Source: an uncultured Pseudohongiella sp. (GTDB lineage Bacteria; Pseudomonadota; Gammaproteobacteria; Pseudomonadales; Pseudohongiellaceae). From it: a stretch of DNA of 24,000 bases. The DNA lies in contig CBDDGA010000002.1 in the NCBI GenBank assembly GCA_965227685.1, positions 1,732,393 through 1,756,392 of the forward strand, given 5' to 3'. Under the pieces are notes generated by a model that ran no database searches, was not told where the DNA came from, and was given only the letters and a program-made list of their open reading frames with translations. Shown here piece by piece: positions 1 to 16,993 of the stretch (the first letter of the stretch is position 1; each line of letters starts with the position of its first letter). The position numbers were made by a program, and so were the translations under genes.

Positions 1-1090
1 CTCACCATTCTCAACCAGCTGTTGCCGAAATTCAGAGTATGCATCCATGAAACCGTTGGCTGCGGCATAGTCTGCCTGACCAACATTTCCGAGGACGCCA
101 GCAATCGATGAAAAACAGGCAAAGAAATCAAGAGAAATGTCGCTGGTAGCTTCATCAAGATTAACTAATCCGGATATTTTCGGATTAAGAACACTATTGA
201 AATCTTTCAGAGTCTTGTGAGTAATGTAGCTGTCGCGAATAATTCCAGCAGCATGAATAACACCATTTATTCTGCCATGTTCAGCGACTGTCTGGCTGAC
301 CAAAAATTCTACAGACTGTTTATCTGCTACATCGATTTGCAGGTACTTAACAGTTGCCCCTAAATCTCGAAGAAGGTCTAATGAAGCTTCTTGCTCAGTT
401 CCGAGCGTTGACCTTCCAACCAGTATCAACTTGCAATGAGAGCAATTTTCAGCAATTGCTCTGGAAACAATCAGCCCTAATCCACCGGCACCTCCGGTAA
501 TCAGATAAACACCCTCGTTAGACCATGGGCTATTACCCCTATCTCTACTTACATCACAGTCAGCAGATGGAACCCAGGACCGTATTTTTCGCAACTCACC
601 ATCATGGCGTATATGTAAATTACTTCCATGATGGGATTCCCTCTCCAAAAGCTCGAGAACTTCAGATAAATTTAACTGGGAACCCACTTCTATTAACTGG
701 CCGCGAAAATTCGGATTTTCCTTCCTGGCAGTCAGCAGTAGTGGATACAAGGCTTCTAGCAACAGGCCGGAAGCATTCAGAGGAATTACGATTTGCAGCA
801 AGGATGGCGTCTGATTGGACTTTAGCGACTCCTGCACCAGTAAGAAAACGTGTTCAGCAACCTCAAGGACACGGGTCGGGAGGTCTTCTGAATCTGGTAC
901 AAACAGGGAGAACTGGTTTGCACCCTTCTCGCGCGCTGCCTGCGATAAATACCCATCATGATCGAATTCCCCTGCTGAACTATCAGCCTGTACATCACAC
1001 AGAAGTACTTTTCCAGGAATCGCAGAGTCGTTATCAGCAGGCGAAGAAATCTCCTGAGGATGCCATTGTGGCACCAATAAATTTACTGCC
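1..1090 (-). other. PKS domain KR (structural plus catalytic subdomains, truncated by the window edge)
   Basis: LLVPQWHP... and LLLTARKENPNFRGQLIEV form the structural half. GVYLITGGAGGLGLIV is the Rossmann motif (TGGAGGLG at 475-498). Also INGVIHAAGIIRDS and FFACFSSIAGVLGNVGQADYAAANGFMDAY. Confidence 0.8.
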
Positions 1091-4000: not shown

Positions 4001-7000
4001 AAGCTAATTCTCGATGGAACGCCGCCTTCGAGATAAAGTGCATTCCAATCAACATCAAAGCCTTTGCACCATGCCTGAAGCAGTCTGGGCCAATCCCGTT
4101 GTTTCAGCCAGGAGCTACTCAATTCTTGTAGTTTCGCCTCTCCACCGAATTGTTGAAGCAATTCCGGGAGTGACTTTTTATTGTCGAAATTCAACTCTGT
4201 ATGATCTGGCCCTGCATGCAGAAAACCTCGTAGTTTTTCCTTCAACTGCAATACTGAACTGGCAGTAACCGCGAAGCGGTAATTCATCGCTTCTCTGCCA
4301 ACCTGCAGCGTATACGCCAGGCTAACCAGATCCTGATACGCATAATCCTGATGTTCAATAAATGAAAGCAAGTTAGCCGCGGCTTTCTTTAGCTGCGACT
4401 CTCCCTTAGCCGACAAAACGACTGCCACCGGGGAACCATCATTGCTGCCTTCGTTAGCAGAGTGTGAAACGGGAGAAATATATTCCTCCAGCACAAGGTG
4501 GGCATTAGTACCACTGAACCCGAATGAGTTAATGGCACAACGACGTACATCCTGCTCTCCCAACTCCCAGTCCACTAGCGAGGAATTGATATAAAAGGGA
4601 GATCCCTCAATTTCAATATGTTCATTCAGATTTTCAAAGCCAACAACCGGGGGAATCTTCTTGTTTTGTATGGCTAGCAAGCCCTTGATCACACTCGCCA
4701 CACCAGCAGCAGCTAGCGAATGTCCAATACAGCTTTTGGCTGAACCAAGCGCACAACTGGCTTCTTTTCTATTCGTCGAGTCAAATGCATTAATCAATGC
4801 CTCAACCTCAATCGGATCTCCAAGTTTGGTGCCAGTTCCATGCGCTTCCAATAAACTTATCGAGTCCGGATCTATGCCGAATTTTTCATGTACCTGCTTT
4901 TCTAGCGAAATTTGAGACTGGCAGCTTGGGGCAGTAATTCCATTTGTCCTTCCATCCTGATTAACACCCCAGGCACGAATTACACCTTTTATTGGATCAC
5001 CGTCTCTTTGTGCGTCCGCCAGCGGTTTTAGAAGGACTGCTCCCACACCTTCACTGGGAACAAATCCATTGGCCTTGTCGTCGAATGCAAAACATCGACC
5101 ATCTTCAGATAACATTCCTCCGCGACCTGCCATGACATGCAAACTCGGGTCAGGCAATACAGAAACGCCTCCAGCCAGAGCCAGATCACAGTTTCCCAGA
5201 ATGAGGTTATTGCATGCCTCTGCTATAGCGACGAGAGATGATGAACAGGCTGTATCAATTGTTAAACAAGGACCATTGAGGTTCAGATAAAAGGCAATCC
5301 TGGCCGCCAATATCGATACCGAATTTCCGATTAGTGCCTGCGCAGTCCATGAATCGGGATTACTGTTTATCCCATAGTTATTGCGTAATGACCCAACGAA
5401 AACACCACAGCTTTTTCCTGACAGGTTCTTGGGATTAATTCCAGCGTCTTCTATGCACTGCCAACTGGATTGGAGAAACAGCCTTTGTTGAGGATCGATG
5501 ACTTCAGCTTCGGCAGGAGACAATTCGAAGAAACGTGGATCAAACTTGTCCGCATTTTCCAAAACTCCCATCTTTTGACAGGAAAGGAGACTTGTATCTG
5601 TTAGTCCCCAGCGTTCCAGTGGAACATCAGATACACAGTTAACACCTTCGGAAAGGTTCTTCCAGTATTCTTCCAAATTGGAGGATTCAGGAAACTGTCC
5701 GGATACTCCGATTATCGCAATCGCACGGCTATCGACTTCCTCATTTACTTTTTCCGGCTGCAACGATAGATCATGGTCAAACTTAGCGTAACCCTTTTCA
5801 ATCTGTTCATCTCTGGTTGGAGCGGGTATCGAGACTGAGGGTTCATTGGCTACATTTTCTGAGACTGAGGGATTTTCTGAGACTGTGCGCTCAGCACCGA
5901 GCCCAACCAGGTGCATCGCCAAATCGGCAATCGTGGGGAAATCGTATAACGTCGACACCGTGATCGAAGATGAAAATTCATTTTTCAGAAAGCGGGTCCA
6001 TTCAGCCCCTATGATAGAATCTATCCCCAACTCTACGAATGAAACGTCAGATGCAATCTCGTCTGCCTCTACATAGAGCACTTCCGCGAGACTTTTTGTG
6101 AGCATCTCGATAGTTGCATCACGCAAACTCCCGGATGATGCAGATGATGCTCCACTGGCTGTCTCCAATGCCGGTGGAGATAGTGAATGATCCACTACAG
6201 TTGCAGAGCCGCAATCAATGCTGGTGACCCTGGCTTCATTCAGAATTAGTGGCATCAGATAGTTTGATAACTGCTGAACACTAGGGTGGTCGTAGAGCAC
6301 AGATACTGATTGCTGCAATCCAAACCGACTATTTATCCAGCGAATCCATTCTGCACTCAGAATGGAATCGAGCCCTAATTCAATGAATACCGCATCTAAT
6401 TCAACATCGGAAACGTCAACATAGAAAATTTCGGACAGGCTGGATAGTAAGCAACTTTGCAATTCCTGAATCGTGCAAGGCCTCTGGTTATTCCCGTCTT
6501 CCACCTCGCCGAGAGTGAAAGATTTCTGGCTTTCAGATGCTGACGCAGGAACTACGGACGCAGGAGAATCAGGGATTTCCTTTGTACTATCGTCGTCTAT
6601 AGTTGTTGACAGTTGTGACGCCAGATGCCCTGCAAGATTTCTGACCGTTGAATGATCATATAGAATCGAAACCGTTAGTTTTCTGCCGAATTCATTTTCA
6701 ATCCAGCGCAGCCATTCAACAGAGATGATTGAATCCAATCCCAATTCGACGAAGCTGCTGTCCTCATCAAGAGAGTCTTCGTCAATAAACATAAGCTCGG
6801 CGAGGCTGGCACGTAACCTGGCTTCAATATCTCTTCTGGTATCAACTACTGATGAAGCTACCTGGGCAGAGTGCGGAGAAGTAACTGAGTCTAACGGTAT
6901 GTTCTCGATTTCGGATGGTTCATCTGATTGGTTACTGTCAGAGGTACTGGAGAAATCGACCGGAGAAAGTAATCGTTTTTTGGACGAACTGTCGTGATTC

Positions 7001-8991
7001 TTTTCAGCCTCATTCCTGACTTGCAGTTCTTTTGGTGAAATATCTGTATTCTTTTCAATGCCGGTTGAGTCCTGATGATTGCCGAAGACAAACTTACTTC
7101 CGACAGGTCTTGGATTAACATTCTTGCAATGCCCTATCCAGAATGAACTTCTGGCAAATGGATACGTGGGCAGATTTAGTCGCGCAGGAAGTGAGCCACC
7201 ATTGTAAAGCTCTCGCCAATCTACATTTTCTCCACCTAACCATAATTGCAGAAGTTTATTTAGCTCGGGCTCTTCGAAGTCATTGTCAATTCTTGATAAT
7301 GAACCGTGTACAGGATCTGAGGTAGTAGTTCCTGATTTCGACGGCTCAACACAACGAGCCATTGCTGCACTATTGGTGGACAATCTGCTTAGCTCATCCA
7401 GCAATGAGGTCATGGAAGACACAACCATACCCCAGCGGTACTTCATTGGTTTGCGCCCCACCTGCAGGGTATAGGCAATATTGGATAGCCTGTCGTCAGA
7501 ATAATTTTGCGTCTTGATATGCTGTACGAGTCGACGCGCGATTGCGGCTAATTGATCATTAGTTCTGGCTGACAGAATGATCAATTCAGGATTAGGTCTC
7601 TGAGATGATGAATCTACACTCTGTTGCTTTGGTGGCTCGACGTATTCTTCAATGAGAATATGAGAATTCACCCCACCAAATCCGAATGAACTGACGCCCG
7701 CTCGCCTGGGTTCTCCATCAGGATGGGCTTCCCAAGCCTCAAATTCTGTAACTACACGAAATGGGCTTCCCTCCAGCTTTATGTTTGAATTCAGGCTCTC
7801 GAAATTCAGACTTGCCGGTATAGCTTTATGCTTTAACGACATCAGAACTTTTACGATTCCAGCAATCCCCGCTGCGGCTTCCAGATGTCCAATATTGGTT
7901 TTGACACTGCCAACCCCGCAACTTTGAGCAGATAGATCGATGCCTTCCGACTCTGCCATCGCCTGATATGCCTTCACCAGTGCATTGAACTCTGCAGGAT
8001 CACCTTTCTGAGTTCCAGATCCATGCGCCTCTACATAGCTGATCTTGTCCGGTGACAGTCCTGATTTTCTGAATACATCAACGAGCATTTGATATTGCGC
8101 GTCCAGGCTCGGAGATGTGACTGTCGATACCTTGCCGCCGTGATTTACTACTGAGCCTGCTACCAGTCCGTAGACATGATCTCCATCAGCCAAGGCTTTA
8201 TCCAAAGGCTTCAATAGAACTAATGCCGCTCCCTCACCTCGCACATAGCCATCGGCGTTTTCGTCAAAGCTTCTACATTTTCCGGTTGGAGAGAGCATGC
8301 CGGCTTTTGAAAAAGCCACATGATAGGTAGGTGTGCATATCAGACTGACGCCGCCCGCTAACGCTGTAGAACACTCACCATTCTTGAGCGCGGTTACCGC
8401 CTGATGTAGTGCAACTAGTGAACTTGAACATGCCGTATCGATTTGCAAGCTTGTTGATTTGAAATCAAATTCATAAGAAATTCGATTTGGAATTAATGAG
8501 GAGAATGTTCCTGTTGCAGCATGTCCTTCGATGGCACTTTCTGGACCTACAAGTAATTCCTTGTAGTCGTTGCTGGCGGAACCAATAAAGACCCCGGTGT
8601 CTGACCCTCTGAAGTCCTGGGGCGAATACCCAGCGTCTTCGATGCAGCTCCATGCAAGTTCAAGCATGAGCCTCTGCTGAGGATCCATATACACAGCTTC
8701 ACGTGAGGAGATATTGAAAAACTTGGCATCGAAAGCGTCCACATTCTCCAGAAACCCTCCCCATCTACTCACAGTGGAGTTAGGCCTGGTTGCATCTGAC
8801 GAATAGTAGTCGTCTACGTACCAACGGTCTTTTGGCACTTCCTTAATAGAGCTCTTTGAACTGGCAAGGTTATTCCAGTAAGCATGATAGTCCTCAGCAT
8901 CTGGAAACTTGCAGCTGATACCAACTATTGCAATCTTGGCCTCATTTCCGTCCTCGGACTTCCTGGCTTTGTATTGAATAACTTTGGGCAT
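1..8991 (-). CDS. Modular trans-AT-type polyketide synthase, N-terminal 2997 aa. The C-terminus lies beyond the left edge. Domain order: KS-ACP-ACP-ACP-KS-ACP-ACP-KS-KR.
   Basis: Hand translation of the minus strand. ATG at 8991-8989 has GGGAG 9 nt upstream. The frame contains no stop codon down to base 1, so an ORF caller that needs a stop would not list it. There are three complete KS motif sets (DTACSSS; HGSGT or HGTGT; NIGH, CIGH or NVGH), five carrier-protein G(L/I)DS motifs, and a KR Rossmann TGGAGGLG plus SSIAGVLGNVGQADYAAAN. No acyltransferase region lies between any KS and ACP. Each KS is followed by a roughly 160-aa flanking region ending in LPTYPF..(F/Y)W, as in AT-less PKSs. Confidence 0.9.
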   Translation of the reverse strand, partial: MPKVIQYKARKSEDGNEAKIAIVGISCKFPDAEDYHAYWNNLASSKSSIKEVPKDRWYVDDYYSSDATRPNSTVSRWGGFLENVDAFDAKFFNISSREAVYMDPQQRLMLELAWSCIEDAGYSPQDFRGSDTGVFIGSASNDYKELLVGPESAIEGHAATGTFSSLIPNRISYEFDFKSTSLQIDTACSSSLVALHQAVTALKNGECSTALAGGVSLICTPTYHVAFSKAGMLSPTGKCRSFDENADGYVRGEGAALVLLKPLDKALADGDHVYGLVAGSVVNHGGKVSTVTSPSLDAQYQMLVDVFRKSGLSPDKISYVEAHGSGTQKGDPAEFNALVKAYQAMAESEGIDLSAQSCGVGSVKTNIGHLEAAAGIAGIVKVLMSLKHKAIPASLNFESLNSNIKLEGSPFRVVTEFEAWEAHPDGEPRRAGVSSFGFGGVNSHILIEEYVEPPKQQSVDSSSQRPNPELIILSARTNDQLAAIARRLVQHIKTQNYSDDRLSNIAYTLQVGRKPMKYRWGMVVSSMTSLLDELSRLSTNSAAMARCVEPSKSGTTTSDPVHGSLSRIDNDFEEPELNKLLQLWLGGENVDWRELYNGGSLPARLNLPTYPFARSSFWIGHCKNVNPRPVGSKFVFGNHQDSTGIEKNTDISPKELQVRNEAEKNHDSSSKKRLLSPVDFSSTSDSNQSDEPSEIENIPLDSVTSPHSAQVASSVVDTRRDIEARLRASLAELMFIDEDSLDEDSSFVELGLDSIISVEWLRWIENEFGRKLTVSILYDHSTVRNLAGHLASQLSTTIDDDSTKEIPDSPASVVPASASESQKSFTLGEVEDGNNQRPCTIQELQSCLLSSLSEIFYVDVSDVELDAVFIELGLDSILSAEWIRWINSRFGLQQSVSVLYDHPSVQQLSNYLMPLILNEARVTSIDCGSATVVDHSLSPPALETASGASSASSGSLRDATIEMLTKSLAEVLYVEADEIASDVSFVELGIDSIIGAEWTRFLKNEFSSSITVSTLYDFPTIADLAMHLVGLGAERTVSENPSVSENVANEPSVSIPAPTRDEQIEKGYAKFDHDLSLQPEKVNEEVDSRAIAIIGVSGQFPESSNLEEYWKNLSEGVNCVSDVPLERWGLTDTSLLSCQKMGVLENADKFDPRFFELSPAEAEVIDPQQRLFLQSSWQCIEDAGINPKNLSGKSCGVFVGSLRNNYGINSNPDSWTAQALIGNSVSILAARIAFYLNLNGPCLTIDTACSSSLVAIAEACNNLILGNCDLALAGGVSVLPDPSLHVMAGRGGMLSEDGRCFAFDDKANGFVPSEGVGAVLLKPLADAQRDGDPIKGVIRAWGVNQDGRTNGITAPSCQSQISLEKQVHEKFGIDPDSISLLEAHGTGTKLGDPIEVEALINAFDSTNRKEASCALGSAKSCIGHSLAAAGVASVIKGLLAIQNKKIPPVVGFENLNEHIEIEGSPFYINSSLVDWELGEQDVRRCAINSFGFSGTNAHLVLEEYISPVSHSANEGSNDGSPVAVVLSAKGESQLKKAAANLLSFIEHQDYAYQDLVSLAYTLQVGREAMNYRFAVTASSVLQLKEKLRGFLHAGPDHTELNFDNKKSLPELLQQFGGEAKLQELSSSWLKQRDWPRLLQAWCKGFDVDWNALYLEGGVPSRISLPTYPFLDYSFWKLATEIPYQGDQQTSFNDEVVKTHAELTGANNPGFKNELHADENAVASQTADWLNHLLRSTLSSLLCISEDDIEDDLPFSELGLDSISSVEWMKTINSETGGSVEASEIYNYPTLEKFKEYLIESFEHSPLPDISRGRFAIAGESPTVLTSVTAAPAPASEDRSLNHRINDVVAHSEVSPEGDPTTIVGSQDQEILIDGVELTQFLQRSLGEMLHLNSSDIESDIPFIELGLDSINGVEWVGMINQKLEIDISASDIYNNSTIEKFARFIAEHKGVHSLDAKAKTPSSTSETGNPGVLGLKRTSTVQIKDVSLIPEAEEGIESSQNDAIAVIGISCQFAGSPDVDTLWKNLENGKELIEPALRWGADVHKNGLSSQSEQTCTDGGFVKGIDEFDSDFFRLSPLECKYMDPQQRLLLSNAWKVTEDAGYAGTMAGRRCGVYVGCCGSDYSNLFSSPPPQAFWGNATSVVAGRIAYHFDLEGPAVTIDTACSSSLVALHAACQSLRSGEIDMAISGGVTLLCTPSIFVQANDANMLSPTGKCYAFDERADGFVPGEGVALVMLKRVEDALRDKDHIYGLIKGSGINHDGETNGITAPNGISQEQLIRSVHKQCGISASQIQMAESHGTGTKLGDPIEFKALASALTSESESNRHCALGSIKTNVGHTMAAAGVAGLIKVLLSIKNKKIPPSLNFGTGNPAIDFENSPLYVNTELKNWDVTPSGKRVATVSSFGFSGTNAHIVVEEGPSEERVELTDSPSLIALSAMNEEQLQDQASALVSFCERNPSANLADISFTLLTGRKHFEYRIALVVDNVEQLKTRLSGWLRNERSQDLQAGRLSSDIKGQGSSSGNPDDNYIYKYQKSTSYAEKQELLAAVSQLYVQGAVLDYADLFYVGSAYRIPLPTYPFANTRYWVDNSDSQSASESIASSELSQANKQADLDSGGSPGSHFKDSTVGNDNKAVNLLVPQWHPQEISSPADNDSAIPGKVLLCDVQADSSAGEFDHDGYLSQAAREKGANQFSLFVPDSEDLPTRVLEVAEHVFLLVQESLKSNQTPSLLQIVIPLNASGLLLEALYPLLLTARKENPNFRGQLIEVGSQLNLSEVLELLERESHHGSNLHIRHDGELRKIRSWVPSADCDVSRDRGNSPWSNEGVYLITGGAGGLGLIVSRAIAENCSHCKLILVGRSTLGTEQEASLDLLRDLGATVKYLQIDVADKQSVEFLVSQTVAEHGRINGVIHAAGIIRDSYITHKTLKDFNSVLNPKISGLVNLDEATSDISLDFFACFSSIAGVLGNVGQADYAAANGFMDAYSEFRQQLVENGE
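1741..2990 (-). other. PKS domain KS3 (catalytic triad intact)
   Basis: IAVIGISCQFA start. IDTACSSSLVAL (Cys codon 2500-2502). ESHGTGTKLGD. KTNVGHTMAAAG. Ends at GTNAHIVVEE. Confidence 0.85.
3165..3385 (-). other. PKS domain ACP5
   Basis: FIELGLDSINGVEWVGMI. Ser codon 3265-3267. Trp at Ser+6. Confidence 0.8.
3610..3830 (-). other. PKS domain ACP4
   Basis: FSELGLDSISSVEWMKTI. Ser codon 3709-3711. Trp at Ser+6. Confidence 0.8.
4485..5740 (-). other. PKS domain KS2 (catalytic triad intact)
   Basis: IAIIGVSGQFP start. IDTACSSSLVAI (Cys codon 5245-5247). EAHGTGTKLGD. KSCIGHSLAAAG. Ends at GTNAHLVLEE. Confidence 0.85.
5915..6130 (-). other. PKS domain ACP3
   Basis: FVELGIDSIIGAEWTRFL. Ser codon 6016-6018. 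Trp at Ser+6. Confidence 0.8.
6255..6480 (-). other. PKS domain ACP2
   Basis: FIELGLDSILSAEWIRWI. Ser codon 6364-6366. Trp at Ser+6. Confidence 0.8.
6620..6850 (-). other. PKS domain ACP1
   Basis: FVELGLDSIISVEWLRWI. Phosphopantetheine Ser codon 6730-6732. Trp at Ser+6 (codon 6712-6714). Confidence 0.8.
7645..8943 (-). other. PKS domain KS1 (ketosynthase, catalytic triad intact)
   Basis: IAIVGISCKFP start. Active-site Cys in IDTACSSSL (codon 8428-8430). EAHGSGTQKGD (His codon 8023-8025). KTNIGHLEAAAG. Ends at GVNSHILIEE. Confidence 0.85.
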
Positions 8992-9251: not shown

Positions 9252-9668
9252 TCAGTAAATTCCAGAAGCAGAAAGCAATAAGTCTTCTGGTTCGAATTCT
9301 TCATAAACCAGAGATGCATTTGGCTCTATCTCAGAAACCACATCCATTACCTGGCTACCGATACATATTCTGTAATGCTTGCAATGATCACTTTGAATCC
9401 CAGGCAGTGCATCCAGAGAGTCCAGCCACTCTGAAGCTCCGGATACTGAGAGAGGCTGGGAAGAACATTTTGCCAGCGCCCCATTGGTCCTTGATTCCTC
9501 GATTGAATATCGATAATGAAGAGGGAAAGGTTCGAACTTGATCTCAAGCTTGCTGCTCTCTTTGAAGTCACCCGATATGTAGATGCTCAACGAAGATGCA
9601 TTTGTATCAAAACGAAGTCCGTCGTAGTCATAATCCACTTCACTTAACTTTTCGAAAGTATTCACCAA
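9252..9668 (-). CDS. Hypothetical protein, about 138 aa, no family recognised
   Basis: The track ORF 9252-9713 opens with GTG at 9713 and has no SD. A strong AAGAGGAGG lies inside it, 6 nt before an in-frame TTG (9668) and 9 nt before GTG (9665), so I prefer the shorter start. I see no recognisable motifs. It sits directly upstream of the PKS gene on the same strand. Confidence 0.5.
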   Translation of the reverse strand: MVNTFEKLSEVDYDYDGLRFDTNASSLSIYISGDFKESSKLEIKFEPFPLHYRYSIEESRTNGALAKCSSQPLSVSGASEWLDSLDALPGIQSDHCKHYRICIGSQVMDVVSEIEPNASLVYEEFEPEDLLLSASGIY

Positions 9669-9783
9669 TGCATACCTCCTCTTAACTCGGTAGGTTTGAG
9701 CGATTCCGCTCACTTATGGAGACTTACTATTGGTTACTGCCAACTAGGACTTTCTACTGCAAACACGAAATTTGCGGATTGCT

Positions 9784-10043: not shown

Positions 10044-10820
10044 TTAATAATTTCCGATTACGTTCCTGCTCCTGGCGACAGCTTCCAGGTACTTGTAAAT
10101 CAATAACCCAGCCACGAAGAAGACAGCCGAGTTAAGAACAACAATAATCAAATGCATTACTTCAAGTTGAGAATTCTGCAATATGACATTCTTGGTCATT
10201 CCGATTGCAGGGTAATACGGAAACAGATTCATCAGACTGTTGTCACCTATGTCCAGAATCGGAACAGTCAATACCAGCAATATCGTTCCCATAATTACGT
10301 TTGTCGCATAAACATAAGCCTTCCCCATCTGTAATCTCAGCCCGCATATTACAAATCCAATTCCAAGAATGGATGGAACTGACAACAACAGAACAAGAAG
10401 CAATGTAAGATAGTCCAGGCTTGGCCAGCGGCCTAATAACTGAATTGCAACCACAGCTAACATAACGGTAAATACAATTGTGTGGAAGGTATAGGCCAAC
10501 ACTCTGGTTGTTATAATCAGCGGCAAGGAATTGCGAGAAATTAACAGCTGCTGAATGAACCCATCAGCACCCATTACTTCGATTGTATTTACGGCAGAGT
10601 AATAAATCAGAGTCCCGTAAACCCAAAGAATATACCCGACCAAAAGCTCGTCCGCCAAAGCAAAAGGTTCTTTTACGGGCACAGACCCTATCAGCCAATA
10701 ACAGATTACAACTAGCACAAGAGTACGAAAAACGGCAAATGAAACGATATCAAACCAATAACGCCTGACATCCAGCAACATATTTGCATTTTCATTCACT
10801 AACAGGGGAAGCAATCTCAT
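10044..10820 (-). CDS. Integral membrane protein, ABC-2-type transporter permease-like (about 6 TM helices)
   Basis: 258 aa and almost entirely hydrophobic, with about six predicted helices (for example FDIVSFAVFRTLVLVVICYWLIG, LTLLLVLLLSVPSILGIGFVICGL, LIIVVLNSAVFFVAGLLIY). Its size and its position downstream of an ABC NBD-like gene fit an ABC-2 permease. No diagnostic motif can be verified by eye. Confidence 0.55.
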   Translation of the reverse strand: MRLLPLLVNENANMLLDVRRYWFDIVSFAVFRTLVLVVICYWLIGSVPVKEPFALADELLVGYILWVYGTLIYYSAVNTIEVMGADGFIQQLLISRNSLPLIITTRVLAYTFHTIVFTVMLAVVAIQLLGRWPSLDYLTLLLVLLLSVPSILGIGFVICGLRLQMGKAYVYATNVIMGTILLVLTVPILDIGDNSLMNLFPYYPAIGMTKNVILQNSQLEVMHLIIVVLNSAVFFVAGLLIYKYLEAVARSRNVIGNY

Positions 10821-11068: not shown

Positions 11069-11746
11069 TTACTGAATCAAACCATCAAATCCCTCGACGT
11101 TTCCGTCGTAGCTTACGCATCCTTCTTCAATCAGAAGAACACGATCACATAGACCTTTTAAATATCCAGCGTCATCGGTTGCTATCAACAAGCACTGAGA
11201 TTCGTCATCAATTGACTGGTCCAGAATTTCCTGCAAATAAGGGAGAGATAAAGTAGAAAGCGACTCCTCAGGGGTATCGATAATTATCAGCCGAGGATTG
11301 TGAATAATCGCACATATAATCGCTGCCCGCTGCCTATATCTTAAAGATAATGTCCCTATTTCTTCATCTCGAGATTCTTCCAGCCCAAATCTATGAAGCA
11401 GTTTCTCCAGCTCCTTCGAACAATCCTGCCTACTCATTCCTCTTAAAACACCAAGGTACAGCGCATTTTCAACCACGCTCATTCTGTGATTCAAATTGCC
11501 GTCGCCCTCAAGAATAATACCAATCTCATCGCCACAATTAACTTGTTTTAACAGCGACTTTCCTTGCAAACATATTTGACCGGAATCCCAGCTCGTTAGC
11601 TTACATATAGATCGTATTAAAGAGGATCTGGTCACATCTTCTCCTCCCAGTATTGCAAGCCGTTCACCAACATTTGCGGTAAAACTTATTCCATCAAGTA
11701 CTTTTCGTCCTTTGAGTGACTTTACAAGATCCTTTACTTCTAACAT
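11069..11746 (-). CDS. ABC-transporter nucleotide-binding-domain homologue with degenerate catalytic motifs (225 aa)
   Basis: The overall NBD layout is clear: MLEVKDLVKSLKGRKVLDGISFTANVGERLAILG..., ...LSLRYRQRAAIICAIIHNPRLIIIDTPEESL..., ...LCDRVLLIEEGCV. I take the start at ATG 11746, the typical NBD N-terminus, 16 nt after the luxR stop. The track start at 11797 would overlap luxR by 35 nt. Confidence 0.75.
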   Translation of the reverse strand: MLEVKDLVKSLKGRKVLDGISFTANVGERLAILGGEDVTRSSLIRSICKLTSWDSGQICLQGKSLLKQVNCGDEIGIILEGDGNLNHRMSVVENALYLGVLRGMSRQDCSKELEKLLHRFGLEESRDEEIGTLSLRYRQRAAIICAIIHNPRLIIIDTPEESLSTLSLPYLQEILDQSIDDESQCLLIATDDAGYLKGLCDRVLLIEEGCVSYDGNVEGFDGLIQ

Positions 11747-11762
11747 TCTCAATTCCCATCTT

Positions 11763-12551
11763 TCATTGAACAGGTAAGTCCGGTTTAACAATTCCATACA
11801 TCAGCGCTTTGGCAACTGCGTGCTGACGATTGCTGGCGCTCAGCTTTTCCATGCTATTCTTCAGATGAAAATTTGCTGTACTTACTGATACTTCTATAAT
11901 TTTGGATATTTCCCACGCTGTTTTCCCTTCGCATGCCCAAAAAAGACATTGCTTTTCTCTTTTAGTCAGCTTGAAGTCGTTGTCGCCATCGGGCTGCTGC
12001 GTCTTCATTGTTTCCGACTGACCAAGAATGCAAGTGCGCAGCCAGGGAACCAGAACCAGTGCTTTCTTGAGTTCTTTATCCGTTTGTTCACTCGTTCTGT
12101 TTGAAGAGAAACTCAATAGAACATAGTCTCCCGCAGGTGATTTGAATGAAAATGAGACACCGCTTAATTGCCCATTCGCATTAATCAACTTGAAGAAGTC
12201 CTGATAATGCTCCTTCTTATATAGATCCAGCTCAATCAGCTCATCCCATCGTATCGGGGTGGAATTTGAAATTGCGTAGTGAAGCATTGGATCCACAAGG
12301 TACAACTTATTTTTTTTGTACTTAGTGGCCCATTCATCTGCTTGCGTTGTATTCACCAGCACGTTGAAGCACGTGAGTGATGTTGGACTACATACGCACA
12401 TGAAGTAGTTATCAAATCCCAGAACATCAGTAATCATCGGCAATCTAAGCTCAGGGCTTTCAACGTTGATTATTTGCTCCAACTGTTGAATGGTCTCTTC
12501 GTAGCCCGACCCGATTGAATCCACATTAATCTCTTTAGATGCGAAGCTCAT
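11763..12551 (-). CDS. LuxR-family quorum-sensing transcriptional regulator (autoinducer-binding domain plus C-terminal LuxR HTH)
   Basis: The N-terminal domain has W-x3-Y-x8-DP-x13-W (WATKYKKNKLYLVDPMLHYAISNSTPIRW) with the same spacing as TraR W57/Y61/D70/P71/W85 and LasR W60/Y64/D73/P74/W88, followed by GQLSGVS (the G113 region). The C-terminus LTKREKQCLFWACEGKTAWEISKIIEVSVSTANFHLKNSMEKL is a canonical LuxR/GerE HTH. AGGAG lies 9 nt upstream of the ATG. The start overlaps the upstream gene by 17 nt. Confidence 0.85.
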   Translation of the reverse strand: MSFASKEINVDSIGSGYEETIQQLEQIINVESPELRLPMITDVLGFDNYFMCVCSPTSLTCFNVLVNTTQADEWATKYKKNKLYLVDPMLHYAISNSTPIRWDELIELDLYKKEHYQDFFKLINANGQLSGVSFSFKSPAGDYVLLSFSSNRTSEQTDKELKKALVLVPWLRTCILGQSETMKTQQPDGDNDFKLTKREKQCLFWACEGKTAWEISKIIEVSVSTANFHLKNSMEKLSASNRQHAVAKALMYGIVKPDLPVQ

Positions 12552-13479
12552 TTGATTCCGCTCCTATATAGATGCTGTTTTCTTTAAGGATACTTTTGTA
12601 TTGCTTGCAAGATTCGCGAACCATTCTGCTACTCGACATAAGCCCTTCATCGAGGATCTTTAATGAACTGTCGTGCTCTTTACAATTTGACGCTCGCGCT
12701 TTTATAGCTTCAAATCTCAGCCGTTCATTAGAATGCTTAGAGGAGATATCTTTTAGGATTTGTTCACTGCCCTCTGGCTCGAGCATCGCTGCGGAGTAGA
12801 TTAGTGCCTGCAGCCTGTTCTCACCCAATATCGATTTGATTTTTGATGATCTGATATCAAACTCGTACTGGTTCTTGTATGCAGTGTTTCTGTTTATTTC
12901 TACCAGGTTTAGAGAGATCGACATACTTTCTGGAGGGTGTTGTACGTGTACGTCCTTGTGAGCCCTATATAGCATCACATCTCCTGCTCTGAGGTACTCC
13001 TCTCCGCAGTATTTTAGGTCTACTACTTCGCCCACAAACCCCGCGACTGAATCATGGTCATACTCATACAAGTCAGTTCTATATCCAGGCCCAAGATATC
13101 CAACAGTCAAAAAGTTGAAATTGTGGTCATGGCCCAGCCCATATGAAAATGCACTTGCCCCGCTGCTTCCATAAACGAAGTCGTTTTCAGAAGGCCAGAA
13201 GTTAGCCCGGATCATGTATTGCTTTTTCTGATCCAGACTTAACAGTATTACTTGAGGAACATAGTTATTCTCAAGCCCGATATTGGACAGGTCTTCCTCA
13301 AGCTCCCTCATTACATAGTCTGCGAGGAAAGACTTATTGTTGGAAAGCGCTTTCAGCAAAGGAGCTACTTCTCTGTATGATTGCTGGTCTGCAGGATCAA
13401 AATTTGCCTGCTCAAGTTGTTCAATAAATTCATCCAGAGCTAAAGATCCACATTCATCGACATTTATCTTGATTGACAT
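12535..13479 (-). CDS. Cupin-like protein with an H-x-H...H (thiol-dioxygenase-like) motif and a C-terminal helical HEAT-like tail (314 aa). Paralogue B.
   Basis: GGAGG lies 8 nt upstream of ATG 13479, so the track's MRREDLI extension is unlikely. The core YMIRANFW...GLGHDHNFNFLTVGYLGPGYRTDLYEY (HDH codons 13123-13131) resembles cupin motif 1 of cysteine dioxygenase as I recall it (..[32 protein letters not shown]). A later AHKDVHVQHPPE supplies candidate third-His residues. The C-terminus is alpha-helical and repeat-like. Confidence 0.6.
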   Translation of the reverse strand: MSIKINVDECGSLALDEFIEQLEQANFDPADQQSYREVAPLLKALSNNKSFLADYVMRELEEDLSNIGLENNYVPQVILLSLDQKKQYMIRANFWPSENDFVYGSSGASAFSYGLGHDHNFNFLTVGYLGPGYRTDLYEYDHDSVAGFVGEVVDLKYCGEEYLRAGDVMLYRAHKDVHVQHPPESMSISLNLVEINRNTAYKNQYEFDIRSSKIKSILGENRLQALIYSAAMLEPEGSEQILKDISSKHSNERLRFEAIKARASNCKEHDSSLKILDEGLMSSSRMVRESCKQYKSILKENSIYIGAESNELRI

Positions 13480-13492
13480 AATTAAGTCCTCC

Positions 13493-14416
13493 CTACGCAA
13501 AACTACAGTTAATTAGTTGCCATGTTTCTTCTGCGGCATTTCTGACTAGATCACTTGGATCCAGAGAAGCCATTTTTTCCAGTGCAGTTAATGACTCGTT
13601 AGTATCGAGCGCGATCAGCTCCCGCATGATGTGCCATCTGACCTGGGCATCAGGATGCGAAAGATATTTCTGAAGCAGGCTGAACGAATCAGCTCTTCCC
13701 AAGAGTCTTAGCAGAGTCGAATACATCAAGACTCTTGATGAATTTAGTGACCCATGGCACTGCTCTATCAAAGTGCAACTGCTTTTATCGTATTCCCGGA
13801 CTAAAGCGTTTTCGTCTGGTAGAACAACTGCCTGAATAACTACTATAGAATTCGAAGCCGATTCGAAGGCGAAGGTCTCAATGTTCCCGTCCTGCACCAG
13901 AATCTGGCCATCATGCACTTTCAGTGATCCGGCATCTTGACAATGCTGAGCACCAGCTTCGGAACATCGCCACATTCCTATTTTGCAATCCCCGGACTTT
14001 ATAAATTTCGTAATTATTGTCTGACCAGGGAATACCAGGATTGCATCTTGTTCATTTTCAAGAAGGTTGGCGTCAAAACAGTTTAGAGTTATCTGAAGCT
14101 TTTTATGGTTAAACAGCGTCAGACTTGAAACAGCACCCTTCTGATACCCTCTACAAGGAGGAAGGTAGCTTGTGTCTTCCCTGACTGCTTCCAGCCAGGG
14201 AATCACAAACTCTTTTCTGTCAGTCAGGTAATCAACCAGGCTGTAGGCAAGTTCAATAATTTCATCTGTATCTACCGAACTGCACTTAAGAGCTTCATTC
14301 AGAATTGAGAAATCACTTTCCAGATCGAAGCTTCCCGGGTGGTAGTTTTCTACACTCGCCACACTTCCTTTGAACTTCTCTTTGCATTCATTCAATATAA
14401 GGTTACAGTTGCTCAT
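13493..14416 (-). CDS. Paralogue A of the downstream cupin/HEAT-like protein. It lacks the His ligands and has a C-terminal HEAT-like repeat (307 aa).
   Basis: By-eye alignment to the 314-aa neighbour: YLTDRKEFV with ALSNNKSFL; SLTLFNHKKLQITLNCF with LLSLDQKKQYMIRANFW; ESASNSIVVIQAV with ESMSISLNLVEIN; REYDKSS with YEFDIRSS. VFPGQ occupies the HDH position. The C-terminus HPDAQVRWHIMRELIALD...LDPSDLVRNAAEE looks like HEAT / PBS-lyase-type repeats. GAGG lies 9 nt upstream of the ATG. Confidence 0.6.
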   Translation of the reverse strand: MSNCNLILNECKEKFKGSVASVENYHPGSFDLESDFSILNEALKCSSVDTDEIIELAYSLVDYLTDRKEFVIPWLEAVREDTSYLPPCRGYQKGAVSSLTLFNHKKLQITLNCFDANLLENEQDAILVFPGQTIITKFIKSGDCKIGMWRCSEAGAQHCQDAGSLKVHDGQILVQDGNIETFAFESASNSIVVIQAVVLPDENALVREYDKSSCTLIEQCHGSLNSSRVLMYSTLLRLLGRADSFSLLQKYLSHPDAQVRWHIMRELIALDTNESLTALEKMASLDPSDLVRNAAEETWQLINCSFA

Positions 14417-14463: not shown

Positions 14464-14610
14464 TTACCAACTAACAGGTACTGGTGAATCAATAACGCAT
14501 TGAATCCCACCTACGAAGTTGAGATGATGGCTTCTGGCCATAGCTGTTTTAATTTCAAGTTCGGGCAATGCCATGATGTTGAAGTTTGGGTTATTTTCCG
14601 AGGCTCTCAT
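14464..14610 (-). CDS. Small ORF, 48 aa: MRASENNPNFNIMALPELEIKTAMARSHHLNFVGGIQCVIDSPVPVSW. Candidate precursor or signal peptide.
   Basis: It is not in the track because it is below the 60-aa cutoff. AAGGAG lies 6 nt upstream of ATG 14610 and the stop is TAA at 14464-14466. It sits 47 nt upstream of, and co-directional with, the paralogue pair. There is no independent coding evidence. Confidence 0.5.
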   Translation of the reverse strand: MRASENNPNFNIMALPELEIKTAMARSHHLNFVGGIQCVIDSPVPVSW

Positions 14611-14633: not shown

Positions 14634-14662
14634 AAAAAGAAATTTCGTCGTCTATCACGACG
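14634..14662 (-). promoter_or_regulatory. Dyad CGTCGT-N5-ACGACG followed on the minus strand by AAATTTCTTTTT. Either a terminator/attenuator-like hairpin or an operator, just upstream of the small ORF's SD.
   Basis: Plus-strand arms are at 14646-14651 and 14657-14662. The minus-strand transcript would read CGUCGU-GAUAG-ACGACG-AAAUUUCUUUUU. The dyad lies 36-52 nt upstream of ATG 14610. Confidence 0.35.
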
Positions 14663-14669
14663 TTTAAAT

Positions 14670-14695
14670 TGAAGATTTGTTTTTTTTAATCTTCA
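14670..14695. promoter_or_regulatory. Inverted repeat of 8 bp, TGAAGATT-N10(T-rich)-AATCTTCA
   Basis: Perfect arms at 14670-14677 and 14688-14695 flank a TGTTTTTTTT loop, immediately upstream of the dyad above. Function unknown. Confidence 0.3.
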
Positions 14696-14724
14696 GTAAG
14701 GAGTATATGTATCCGTACCACGAA

Positions 14725-15050
14725 ATATCCGGCTATATGACTAATGGTGATATTCGAGGATGAGCGGTATATAGGCGCGGATGTGCGTATTTGCCGGATA
14801 GAGAAAATCACCTGCTTTCGCCTGAAAGGCTGATTCCTGCTGGCATTGCGGGACTATGCTGAGCAGATATTTCCTGTTGAACGGAGTGCCAAATTGGAGG
14901 CATTTGTAGGGTATGGCGGGGCTTGTGCCGTTGTGAAATACGGCATATAGATTCAGGCCGGACTAGCTAAAAAGGTCCGGTCTGGGCATCTAGGTCATGT
15001 GCTTTTAGATGATGTAAGGAAAGTAGGCTTTATCCGAATAACCTACAAAA
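14725..15050. repeat. GC-richer intergenic island with several short CCGGA/TCCGG-centred palindromic units (REP-like)
   Basis: TATCCGGC (14727-14734) pairs with GCCGGATA (14802-14809). Hairpins TGCCGT-N8-ACGGCA (about 14926-14945) and CCGGAC-N11-GTCCGG (about 14957-14979). GGCTTTATCCGAATAACCTACAAAAT (about 15026-15051) recalls the enterobacterial REP half-site GCCTTATCCGGCCTACAAAAT. Confidence 0.25.
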
Positions 15051-15122: not shown

Positions 15123-15860
15123 TCACAGTTTAAGCACATTTTTCATTTGTGCACTTTGTCTTCTTGAAACTGAAACCTCTTCCCCACTGCTCATGACTAA
15201 TACATAATTTCCGTTTTCAGTAGATTCCACTTTTTTGACTTTACTTAAGTTCACTATCGTGCCTCTGTTAGCACGAAAGAATAACTCCCTACTGAGTCTG
15301 TTTTCGATATAACTCATTGTATGTTGAGCTACTATATTTAGGTCCTTTCCCTTAATTTTGACGTAATTACCAATCGATACAATTGTCTCTATTTGTTTAG
15401 GAGTGAATAATTGCGATTTCCCACCATCGTTTATCAATATGGGTTTTTCCATATTTACAAGATTTGAGCTACTCCGATCACTGGCTCCCCCAGCCCGAGA
15501 TCTATATTTGTCCAATGCCTGACCTAACCGGTTTAATTCTACTGGCTTGTGTAGGTAATCAATAGCGTTTACGTCAAAAGCTTCTAATGCATGACTAGGA
15601 TCAGCCGTGCAAAAAATAATCATGCAATTTTCCTTGGCAATTAACCCAGCCAGGTGGAGCCCTGTGATTTCAGGCAGACCAATATCTAAAAATAGTAAAT
15701 CAGGCTTAATTTCCCGTATCTTGCCTATTGCATCCTTCGCGTTGTCTGCCTCGAATTCAATCTGAATATCATCAAACATCCCAAGCAATCGTCTCATCTC
15801 ACTCCGCGCTAATGGCTCATCATCCACTATAGCGACTCTTATAATATCTGCTGATGTCAC
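15123..15860 (-). CDS. Two-component response regulator, REC plus LytTR DNA-binding domain (AlgR/LytT family)
   Basis: The N-terminus VAIVDDEPLARSEMRRLL...PDLLFLDIGLPEITGL is a receiver domain. The C-terminus ...IVSIGNYVKIKGKDL...FFRANRGTIVNLSKVKKV is LytTR-like. GTG start at 15860 with GAGGAA 7 nt upstream, overlapping the kinase stop. Confidence 0.85.
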   Translation of the reverse strand: MTSADIIRVAIVDDEPLARSEMRRLLGMFDDIQIEFEADNAKDAIGKIREIKPDLLFLDIGLPEITGLHLAGLIAKENCMIIFCTADPSHALEAFDVNAIDYLHKPVELNRLGQALDKYRSRAGGASDRSSSNLVNMEKPILINDGGKSQLFTPKQIETIVSIGNYVKIKGKDLNIVAQHTMSYIENRLSRELFFRANRGTIVNLSKVKKVESTENGNYVLVMSSGEEVSVSRRQSAQMKNVLKL

Positions 15861-15871
15861 GGCTAGATTCC

Positions 15872-16993
15872 TCAGTGATCCACAGGTATAAATAATTCTG
15901 TATGAACGAATTTGTCGTTTTGATAGATTTTTAGTTTTGCGCTACTACCATAGAGAAGCCTGAGTCGTTCTTTGCAATTATCAAGCCCTATCCCAAGCCC
16001 TTTACTTTCTTTATCCAGTCGTCCTTCATTTACTATGTCGATCTGAACTCCGTCCTCGTGCATTGTGCTTCCGAGCTGCAGTAGCCCTCCCTCAATCCTC
16101 TTGCTAATTCCATGCTTCACTGCATTTTCCACAAGTGTTTGTAAAAACATCGGAGGGATCTTGATATCTAATGATTCAGCACTCCAGTCCCTTTCAATTT
16201 TCAATCTGTTCTCAAGCCTGACTTTTTCGAGGTCAAGAAAACTGTCAACTATTTCCAATTCATCTTTTAGTAGAATTAACTCATGTTGCTGCTCTAACGT
16301 ATTGCGCAGAATTACTGAAAGTGCCGAGATCATTTCCGATGCCCGGTCCTTATCTACATAGATCAATGATCGAATATTGTTCAGTGAGTTGAACAGAAAA
16401 TGAGGATTGAGTTGTTGGTTCAGAAGCTTCAACTCTGCAATCTTCTGTTGCATCCTGAGAGCTTCATTTCGATATCCCATTTCCCTATTCCTGTTCCAGG
16501 TTTTCAACCCCCAATAAATGCCTCCCCAGCTTAGATAGATTACCCACATAAAAAGACTGCTGCGAAACACTCTGAATGGAAGAGCAGATGCGACTGGCCC
16601 AAGTTCCTGAAATGCATTCAATAAGGCCTCTGGCGGAGGAAGGACAGTGTCAACGAGTGCCAGAATGGGAATCTCAATCAGGCTGGCACCAAGTGCAACT
16701 ATAAAGGTTGCAGCAATAGCTCGCTTCCAGAATTCGGGAATACTCAACTCTATCCACTTCTGGCTTTTAAACCATAAACGCAATAAATGGCTTCCTGTAA
16801 ATCCCAACAGCGCTATATAAACCCCAACTATCAGCAGGCGGTCTGCTGACTCTATTCCTTGTGCATTTAGGCGGTTACTGGGGAGAACAAATAGAATATA
16901 GATAGCCAGAAAACCCAGCCACCCCACTGCCTGACACCACCAGTAGTACCTGGTAAGCGACAAGTCGAACTCAGATTTATCTGGATCAAGCAT
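15872..16993 (-). CDS. Sensor histidine kinase, LytS/AlgZ (His_kinase PF06580-type) family, membrane-bound
   Basis: The N-terminal half is hydrophobic (about 4-5 TM helices). LNPHFLFNSLNNI is the signature phospho-acceptor box of this family. The HATPase region has ENAVKHG and GLGIGLDNCKERL. Confidence 0.85.
   Translation of the reverse strand: MLDPDKSEFDLSLTRYYWWCQAVGWLGFLAIYILFVLPSNRLNAQGIESADRLLIVGVYIALLGFTGSHLLRLWFKSQKWIELSIPEFWKRAIAATFIVALGASLIEIPILALVDTVLPPPEALLNAFQELGPVASALPFRVFRSSLFMWVIYLSWGGIYWGLKTWNRNREMGYRNEALRMQQKIAELKLLNQQLNPHFLFNSLNNIRSLIYVDKDRASEMISALSVILRNTLEQQHELILLKDELEIVDSFLDLEKVRLENRLKIERDWSAESLDIKIPPMFLQTLVENAVKHGISKRIEGGLLQLGSTMHEDGVQIDIVNEGRLDKESKGLGIGLDNCKERLRLLYGSSAKLKIYQNDKFVHTELFIPVDH

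Follow-up and report, generated by a model that had tools for sequence, protein, structure and literature searches.

In the closest described peptide-modifying systems, MbnBC and TglHI, an iron enzyme is combined with a non-catalytic, leader-binding partner, and O2-dependent chemistry takes place on an iron-bound Cys thiolate of the peptide (PMC10989515). A 2024 review of Cys-modifying metalloenzymes describes Cys oxidation in ribosomally made peptides with post-translational modifications (RiPPs) by multinuclear non-heme iron-dependent oxidative enzymes (MNIOs) and radical S-adenosylmethionine enzymes only (PMC10989515). Cysteine dioxygenase (CDO) holds its metal with His86, His88 and His140 (PMC10989515), and SbzM, a CDO-like cupin of altemicidin/SB-203208 biosynthesis, performs Cys chemistry beyond simple dioxygenation (PMC6331615; PMC10989515). 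Here, a locus of an uncultured Pseudohongiella sp. is compared with these systems. It lies in a 24,000-nt stretch of DNA, called the window in the following (assembly GCA_965227685.1, contig CBDDGA010000002.1, positions 1,732,393 to 1,756,392 of the forward strand), and comprises a gene for a 48-aa peptide followed by the genes of a 307-aa and a 314-aa protein. We lean towards reading these three genes as a RiPP-like maturation cassette that acts on the peptide and stands beside sensor-regulator genes. The cassette is probably an undescribed peptide-modifying system. A full-text literature search, thin in subscription-journal papers, found no described CDO-type cupin acting on a ribosomal peptide.

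All positions given below are those of the window unless another locus is named, and the cassette and its listed flanking genes are all encoded on the minus strand. The cassette itself contains the following features:

14464-14610, minus strand: precursor-like peptide gene, 48 aa (MRASENNPNFNIMALPELEIKTAMARSHHLNFVGGIQCVIDSPVPVSW), with a strong ribosome-binding site (RBS), AAGGAG, at 14622-14617
13493-14416, minus strand: 307-aa metal-free paralogue, a predicted pseudo-cupin (HEAT_2 by Pfam; AlphaFold2, Foldseek)
12535-13479, minus strand: 314-aa predicted catalytic-type cupin with a five-helix HEAT-like tail (AlphaFold2, Foldseek)
13123-13131, minus strand: codons of H117-D118-H119, the H-x-H of cupin motif 1, invariant in 79/79 homologues
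12940-12960, minus strand: codons of H174-K-D176-V-H178-V-Q180 on the predicted strand of cupin motif 2, with D176, H178 and Q180 invariant in 79/79 homologues

The start of the 314-aa open reading frame (ORF) is an ATG. The ORF listing runs on to a TTG at 13500, and the homologues begin at the position of the ATG.

The first-pass annotation of this DNA had proposed a cupin-like core and a HEAT-like tail for both proteins. This proposal is supported by structure prediction, Foldseek, Pfam HEAT_2 and profile alignment, and a cupin fold is predicted for both products. AlphaFold2 models were built from the family alignments A1 (314 family, 36 sequences) and A2 (307 family, 40 sequences). The predicted local distance difference test (pLDDT) and predicted template modelling (pTM) scores were 88.2 and 0.82 for the 314-aa model, and 89.0 and 0.79 for the 307-aa model. 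The elements of both models are colinear, with three N-terminal helices, about a dozen strands forming a cupin barrel, and five C-terminal helices. When the 314-aa model was searched with Foldseek against the PDB, places 1-28 were all taken by thiol dioxygenases (E=1.4e-8 to 7e-6), with about 220 aligned columns and target-normalised TM-scores of 0.58-0.69. The top matches were the Pseudomonas aeruginosa 3-mercaptopropionate dioxygenase 4tlf (E=1.4e-8), the mercaptosuccinate dioxygenase 8vni and rat, mouse and human CDO, and PCO4/5 and ergothioneine dioxygenase were found lower down the list. The best match of the 307-aa model was Bacillus subtilis CDO (3eqe/4qm9, E ~1e-6), followed by ergothioneine dioxygenase, 3-mercaptopropionate dioxygenases and CDO. 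Since thiol dioxygenases lead the Foldseek lists of both models, both proteins are predicted to consist of a CDO-like cupin core and a helical, HEAT-like tail. By sequence, a profile search of the PDB gave no match for the cupin, nor did hhalign against an approximate rat CDO sequence. As for the tail, residues 236-297 of the 307-aa protein match Pfam HEAT_2 (PF13646) with 37.5 bits against a cut-off of 27.7, as do 38 of the 40 family members, and the region matches NblB weakly. The 314-aa protein stays below the HEAT_2 threshold, and weak matches were obtained in only 5 of the 36 members (best E=0.022).

The two products had also been aligned by eye over their whole length and regarded as a tandem duplication. 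The whole-length alignment has no statistical support. BLASTP of the two proteins yields nothing significant, the best segment covering 44 residues at 30% identity (E=0.18). At profile level, hhalign relates residues 203-299 of the 314-aa protein to residues 206-304 of the 307-aa protein (E=1.8e-4, probability 48%). The match is restricted to the last strands and the helical tail, and it connects the 314-aa tail with the HEAT region of the 307-aa protein. A forced global alignment of the two families is colinear but gains no score. The tails are related at profile level only, and the kinship of the two proteins as a whole shows up in the modelled folds alone. The paralogy is read as ancient and fixed in a two-gene module, not as a recent duplication, with the 307-aa and 314-aa proteins as very old paralogues that form an obligate pair.

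The metal motif distinguishes the two members of the pair. The motifs and coordinates quoted in the first-pass annotation are correct (GLGHDHNFNFLTVGYLG in the 314-aa protein, VFPGQTIITKFIKSG in the 307-aa protein, and 13123-13131 for H117-D118-H119), and AHKDVHVQHP of the 314-aa protein gives H174, H178 and H181. Among 79 homologues of the 314-aa protein taken from genome loci, H117, D118, H119, D176, H178 and Q180 are invariant (79/79), and so are R91, N93, W95, S187, S189 and N191. On four predicted strands, invariant residues are spaced i, i+2, i+4 (e.g., R91/N93/W95, D176/H178/Q180 and S187/S189/N191), a spacing that fits side chains lining the interior cavity of a barrel. Not all of the proposed histidines fared equally well. 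H117, H119 and H178 are conserved, H181 is not, and H174 is kept in 75 of 79 members, the remaining four, normal in other respects, having N, L, C or R there. Because H178 and D176 are invariant and H174 is replaceable, H178 is more likely to be the third ligand, as judged from conservation. At the position of the classical cupin Glu ligand stands L124, which is invariant in the family and points to a site of the 3-His type. Most likely, the 314-aa protein holds a 3-His metal site formed by H117, H119 and H178 and flanked by D176 and Q180. In the 40-sequence alignment of the 307 family, no core His is invariant and no strand-alternating pattern appears; the invariant residues are G131, R260, W261, L279, D286 and R292. 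The metal His motif is thus confined to the downstream copy, as the first reading had it.

A site of this kind does not necessarily serve an oxidation. The His residues might bind Zn, Ni or Mn, and the pair might be a hydrolase, an isomerase or a peptide-binding chaperone for the small protein. It is generally known that many cupins with H-x-H...H motifs are not oxygenases. Auxin-binding protein, KdgF and sugar isomerases are included in the Foldseek lists, and intact sites coexist with the Cys-less peptides described below. Nevertheless, thiol dioxygenases outrank all other cupins for both models, and the Glu of most other cupins, which have 3His-1Glu sites, is missing, with L124 invariant in its place. 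A non-redox cupin is therefore considered unlikely.

The two genes form a fixed module. At 90% identity, the 314 family falls into more than 400 clusters, and the GTDB species representatives hold 512 of its loci, the best 80 of which are almost all from Sphingomonadales. For the 307 family, there are 294 representatives at 50% identity. Wherever upstream DNA is available (82 of 82 loci), the 314-like gene is directly preceded by a 307-like gene in the same orientation, and the 307-like stop and 314-like start codons often overlap. This pairing is far beyond chance. With its three members, the clade of the window is a rare side branch; it consists of the window, the Logan contig L001, and a metagenome-assembled genome labelled Blastopirellula NORP48 (L002-L004). 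Within this clade, the cupins share 58-66% and the partners 43-54% identity, and two metagenome scans found no more members. A Sphingomonas gei locus (L067, 1656-6918) carries two tandem pairs, one with a 307-like gene at 2022-3074 and a 314-like gene at 3062-3988, the other with a 307-like gene at 4915-5976 and a 314-like gene at 6001-6918. There, a recognisable peptide precedes the first pair only, and the second cupin has Cys at position 174.

Several members of the 314 family (P0035, P0061, P0093 and P0106, the last being WP_162806461.1) are named 'transposase' by NCBI/UniRef. No transposase domain, mobility or repeats were seen for these proteins, and the label looks like a propagated annotation error. 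Apart from these NCBI names, nothing speaks for a transposase. Pfam and NCBIfam scans found no transposase, integrase or helix-turn-helix domain, there is normally one copy per locus, and the label is contradicted by the cupin fold and the fixed synteny. This identity was rejected as having next to no probability.

The link of the pair to the small upstream ORF, suggested in the first-pass annotation, has strong support. In Sphingosinicella terrae, a 52-aa ORF just upstream of the pair has LPEL and a single Cys in common with the 48-mer of the window. A hidden Markov model (HMM) built from ten such peptides has matches in 72 of 84 loci, where the peptide gene without exception immediately precedes the 307-like gene and shares its strand. 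The consensus reads M-K-K-I-D-I-x-x-[LI]-P-E-L-x-T-x-V-G-x-H-G-S-x-K-Q-x-E-V-G-G-x-x-C. In 68 of 69 distinct peptides, Cys follows exactly 3 residues after GG. The distance from the Pro of LPEL to Cys is a constant 22 residues, and the spacing between LPEL and GG is fixed as well. The leader is conserved, and the tail after Cys is variable and mostly hydrophobic, with 9-20 residues (median 12). The 48-mer of the window matches the HMM at E=2e-14. It has LPEL at residues 15-18, G34-G35, a sole Cys at position 38 (C38, codon 14497-14499) and a tail of 10 residues after it, and it fits the family spacing exactly (P16 to C38). The tails of Sphingomonad peptides have a mean Kyte-Doolittle hydropathy of 2-3 over 9-20 residues; the tail of the window (CVIDSPVPVSW) is far less hydrophobic, with a value of 0.79.

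In eight loci (L012, L044, L054, L058, L062, L073, L082 and L083), a related peptide without Cys is encoded upstream of the 307-like gene, at about 4700-5070 of these loci. These loci come from Erythrobacter, Sphingorhabdus, Blastomonas and Sphingomonas cavernae. Seven of them belong to the twelve loci without an HMM match; the eighth, L058 of S. cavernae, does match, with Val replacing Cys. The Cys-less peptides, e.g., MPKIDLANIPGLETAQALFGAVKAQAATYDDSIVEIMVFVYDTAPPPPPPPGLF, have an acidic residue (Asp or Glu) close to where Cys usually stands, and their tail is rich in Tyr and Phe. With them, the layout typical of RiPPs, i.e., a short gene beside modifying genes of the same orientation, whose product has a conserved leader and a tail that varies, is found in 72 of 84 loci plus 7 Cys-less ones.

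Pairwise comparison of the three components across 74 loci gave mean identities of 55% (cupin), 40% (partner) and 43% (peptide). The distance between peptides correlates with that between 307-like proteins when the 314-like distance is controlled for (partial r=0.57, permutation p=0.0005), and the reverse partial correlation, of peptide with cupin controlling for the partner, is 0.11 (p=0.06), although a common phylogeny and the more rapid evolution of the partner can inflate such figures. When Cys-type loci are compared with Cys-less ones, partner identity falls to 23%, and cupin identity is still 46%. Because peptide divergence tracks that of the 307-like protein, the metal-free paralogue is read as the peptide-recognition subunit. 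The data fit this role and are supportive only.

A different substrate has to be weighed at this point. The 314-aa protein might be a small-molecule thiol dioxygenase for cysteine, 3-mercaptopropionate or a similar compound, with a structural role for the paralogue and a peptide that is unrelated or only regulatory. Its closest folds are indeed free-thiol dioxygenases. Moreover, the invariant R91 sits 26 residues before H117, which we take to equal the spacing of R60 and H86 in rat CDO, where R60 binds the substrate carboxylate. However, an activity of this kind would leave unexplained why a peptide with a fixed leader-Cys distance is found upstream almost universally, why peptide and partner co-diverge, and why both proteins carry HEAT-like tails. 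No sulfur-metabolism genes were found among the neighbours of the cassette. We regard a free thiol as an improbable substrate.

The neighbourhood was studied by targeted phmmer and HMM searches for conserved genes. In Sphingomonadales, the sole conserved neighbours are an extracytoplasmic function (ECF) sigma factor (Sigma70_r2, r4_2) and a protein of 200 aa for which four membrane helices are predicted, encoded directly upstream in 46-60 loci, e.g., at 3607-4775 of the S. terrae locus L053. The 200-aa protein belongs to no Pfam family and may be an unrecognised anti-sigma factor. An ECF sigma factor is found in methanobactin operons too (PMC10989515; PMC3621798). The other flanks in Sphingomonadales are ordinary and variable (TPR protein, malate synthase, superoxide dismutase, adenylate cyclase). 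In the window clade, a histidine kinase and a LytTR regulator replace the ECF sigma factor and the four-helix protein, and the same two genes lie upstream in L001 and L002/L003. The flanking features of the window are as follows:

15872-16993, minus strand: histidine kinase (PF06580, Pfam), which with the LytTR regulator makes up the next 5' genes ahead of the cassette
15123-15860, minus strand: LytTR response regulator (Pfam)
between the LytTR gene and the 48-codon ORF: intergenic region of 512 bp
11763-12551, minus strand: LuxR-type regulator with autoinducer-binding domain (Pfam, NCBIfam), directly 3' of the 314-aa gene
11069-11797, minus strand: ABC ATPase (Pfam, NCBIfam)
10044-10820, minus strand: 258-aa membrane protein
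9252-9713, minus strand: 153-aa ORF
1-8991, minus strand: trans-acyltransferase (trans-AT)-type polyketide synthase (PKS) that leaves the window, at least 2997 aa, with 3 KS, 5 ACP and 1 KR domains, RhiE-like linkers and no AT domain

Neither the 153-aa nor the 258-aa ORF, which separate the PKS from the ABC ATPase, matched a Pfam or NCBIfam family. Counterparts of 135 aa and 258-260 aa are found in the same places of L002/L003, and the PKS homologue there has about 5400 aa. The LuxR, ABC and PKS genes follow the cassette in the window clade only. Their order is the same in L002/L003, and they are absent from the Sphingomonadales loci.

The position of the cassette some 3.5 kb from a very large trans-AT PKS, in the window as well as in L002/L003, had led to the alternative that the two proteins are tailoring oxygenases for the polyketide. 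However, about 80 Sphingomonadales loci hold the peptide, the pair and the regulators without any PKS nearby, and in the window itself, the LuxR and ABC genes separate the cassette from the PKS. Of the two kinds of co-occurrence suggested for a check, the one with the small ORF was found (72 of 84 loci), and the one with PKS genes is confined to the window clade. The pair travels with the peptide and with sensor-regulator genes, not with the PKS, which removes the tailoring reading; we reject it as very unlikely.

The LuxR regulator keeps the W-x3-Y-x8-D-P-x13-W pattern of receptors that bind acyl-homoserine lactones (AHLs), and among the NCBIfam models it matches SdiA best. The window encodes no LuxI-type synthase, and the protein looks like a LuxR solo bordering the PKS cluster. 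The product of the peptide was considered as its ligand. This idea was set aside because the canonical residues for AHL binding are retained in the regulator, and because in Sphingomonadales no LuxR gene is conserved beside the cassette.

The region upstream of the peptide gene contains several elements that may take part in its control:

14646-14767, minus strand: presumed control region of the peptide operon, with two 9-mers, a TATACT hexamer, a palindrome and a hairpin with T-run
14767-14759 and 14747-14739, minus strand: two 9-mers, CCGCTCATC and CCATTAGTC, 20 nt apart
14707-14702, minus strand: TATACT hexamer, conserved in L001 and L002
14694-14671, minus strand: perfect palindrome GAAGATT-N10-AATCTTC, whose AGATT..AATCT palindrome is kept in L001 and L002
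14662-14646, minus strand: terminator-like hairpin CGTCGTGATAGACGACG and T-run, located after the presumed promoter and ahead of the peptide gene's RBS

The 9-mers resemble what we take to be the AlgR/LytTR-type consensus CCGTTCGTC, and partly conserved counterparts are present in L001 and L002. When up to 2 mismatches are allowed, the window holds 51 copies of the 9-mer where 43 are expected, which is no enrichment, and these sites are therefore kept as a lead only. The palindrome may be an operator or a stem in the 5' untranslated region. The hairpin, which is not conserved in L001/L002, may act as an attenuator or as a stabilising stem.

What the data show are the modelled fold, the motifs, the synteny, the peptide family and the co-divergence; on these we build an interpretation of the complex, its substrate, metal and chemistry, and of a signalling role. 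By analogy with MbnBC and TglHI, the two proteins would form a heterocomplex with a mononuclear 3-His iron site. The metal-free 307-aa paralogue, probably together with the helical tails, would dock the conserved leader (I/L-P-E-L-x-T ... E-V-G-G). Docking would place the residue 22 positions after Pro, i.e., C38 in the window, into the iron centre of the 314-aa cupin. The cupin would then oxidise C38 with O2. In the simplest case, this would be S-oxygenation of Cys to the sulfinate, but the oxidation centred on Cys may also be more complex. As for the short hydrophobic product, a signal for the cell envelope or for regulation is more probable than an antibiotic. Such a role is suggested by the constant company of a membrane sensor and regulator (an AlgZ/AlgR-like kinase with the LytTR regulator in the window, the ECF sigma factor with the four-helix protein in Sphingomonadales), and by the fact that protease, exporter and immunity genes were usually not found beside the cassette. 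Of the first-pass reading, the pairing of a cupin with a pseudo-cupin and the connection to the peptide have good support.

The same surroundings would also suit a sensor that makes no diffusible product. In this case, the Cys of a small membrane-associated protein, or the Asp of its Cys-less forms, would bind the metal of the cupin, and the pair would report O2, metal or redox state to the neighbouring regulators, which can be likened to oxygen sensing by plant cysteine oxidases. The adjoining membrane sensor and regulator pair, the strongly hydrophobic Sphingomonad tails, the lack of a protease or exporter at most loci, and the Asp or Glu near the Cys position of Cys-less peptides beside an unchanged cupin are all consistent with a sensor. 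Yet most tails are too short for a transmembrane helix, the tail of the window clade is not hydrophobic, and RiPPs are marked by just this combination of a conserved leader and a variable tail. Furthermore, we know of no precedent for such a sensor. It is therefore held to be rather unlikely, and maturation of the peptide by the cassette remains the preferred reading.

Several results weigh against this preference, in addition to the possible inflation of the co-divergence figures. The main counter-argument comes from the eight loci with Cys-less peptides. Their cupins retain every invariant active-site residue, which weakens the case for a strictly thiol-specific chemistry: either the target is not Cys in every case, or the chemistry is not restricted to thiols. 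To our knowledge, known thiol dioxygenases act on free thiols or N-terminal Cys, never on an internal Cys. A second-sphere motif of the Ser-His-Tyr type is not evident in the 314 family, where the strand after motif 2 reads S-x-S-x-N (S187/S189/N191) and has no invariant His or Tyr. The cupin cores of the 36 and 40 family members match no Pfam or NCBIfam model at E<=10, the cupin, CDO_I and PCO_ADO models included, in line with the first-pass remark that no family fusing a CDO-like cupin to HEAT-like repeats was known. A RiPP recognition element (RRE) is the usual leader-recognition element of RiPPs, and neither an RRE/PqqD-like domain nor a peptidase domain was found in the pair or its conserved neighbours by Pfam and NCBIfam scans. 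Finally, an exporter is absent at most loci, the ABC ATPase and the membrane protein being present in the window clade only.

Taken to its full extent, the proposal would describe a new class of RiPPs, in which a thiol-dioxygenase-type mononuclear cupin, the first of its kind, would oxidise an internal Cys of a ribosomal peptide as a heterodimer with a leader-reading, metal-free paralogue. The Cys-oxidised (e.g., sulfino) hydrophobic product would be an envelope signal sensed by the ECF sigma factor and the four-helix membrane protein or by the kinase and the LytTR regulator, and in the organism of the window it would gate the trans-AT PKS cluster. This complete version is tentative, and we would sooner doubt than assert it. 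If confirmed, it would add a CDO-type mononuclear iron cupin to the enzymes that modify ribosomal peptides. The pair would also show how a duplicated enzyme loses its metal site and turns into a substrate-recognition subunit. Moreover, the 512 related GTDB loci have no Pfam or NCBIfam model and some are labelled 'transposase', so defining the cassette would correct many annotations. It could further uncover signalling by a peptide that is linked with ECF sigma factors in Sphingomonadales and with a polyketide cluster in the window.

Compared with known systems, the cassette combines traits that have been described separately. HEAT_2-type proteins such as NblB and the CpcE/F lyases share the repeats with the 307-aa protein, whose C-terminal region passes the HEAT_2 threshold and matches NblB weakly. 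In contrast to these proteins, the repeats here form a short tail on a cupin and do not make up the whole protein. Thiol dioxygenases (CDO, 3-mercaptopropionate and mercaptosuccinate dioxygenases, ADO/PCO) have the same N-terminal helices and cupin barrel and provide the best structural matches of both proteins. In sequence pattern, the 314-aa protein agrees with them in H-D-H, in one more His on a strand that follows and in the missing Glu ligand, a pattern of the 3-His type. Unlike them, the proteins of the cassette cannot be related by sequence to Pfam CDO_I, Pfam PCO_ADO or the PDB, carry a five-helix HEAT-like tail and lack an evident Ser-His-Tyr motif, and the enzyme has an obligate metal-free paralogue as its partner. 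The presumed substrate differs as well, being the internal Cys of a ribosomal peptide instead of a free thiol or an N-terminal Cys. SbzM likewise represents a CDO-type cupin recruited to natural-product biosynthesis, but its substrate is free L-cysteine, and it has no peptide substrate, pseudo-enzyme partner or HEAT tail. The RiPP oxidases that consist of an MNIO and a partner (MbnBC, TglHI, ChrHI) follow the same logic of precursor peptide, metalloenzyme and non-catalytic partner. Their fold is quite another one, since MNIOs belong to the DUF692 TIM barrels and contain two or three irons, whereas a mononuclear cupin is predicted here, and the partner in the cassette is a paralogue of the enzyme itself.

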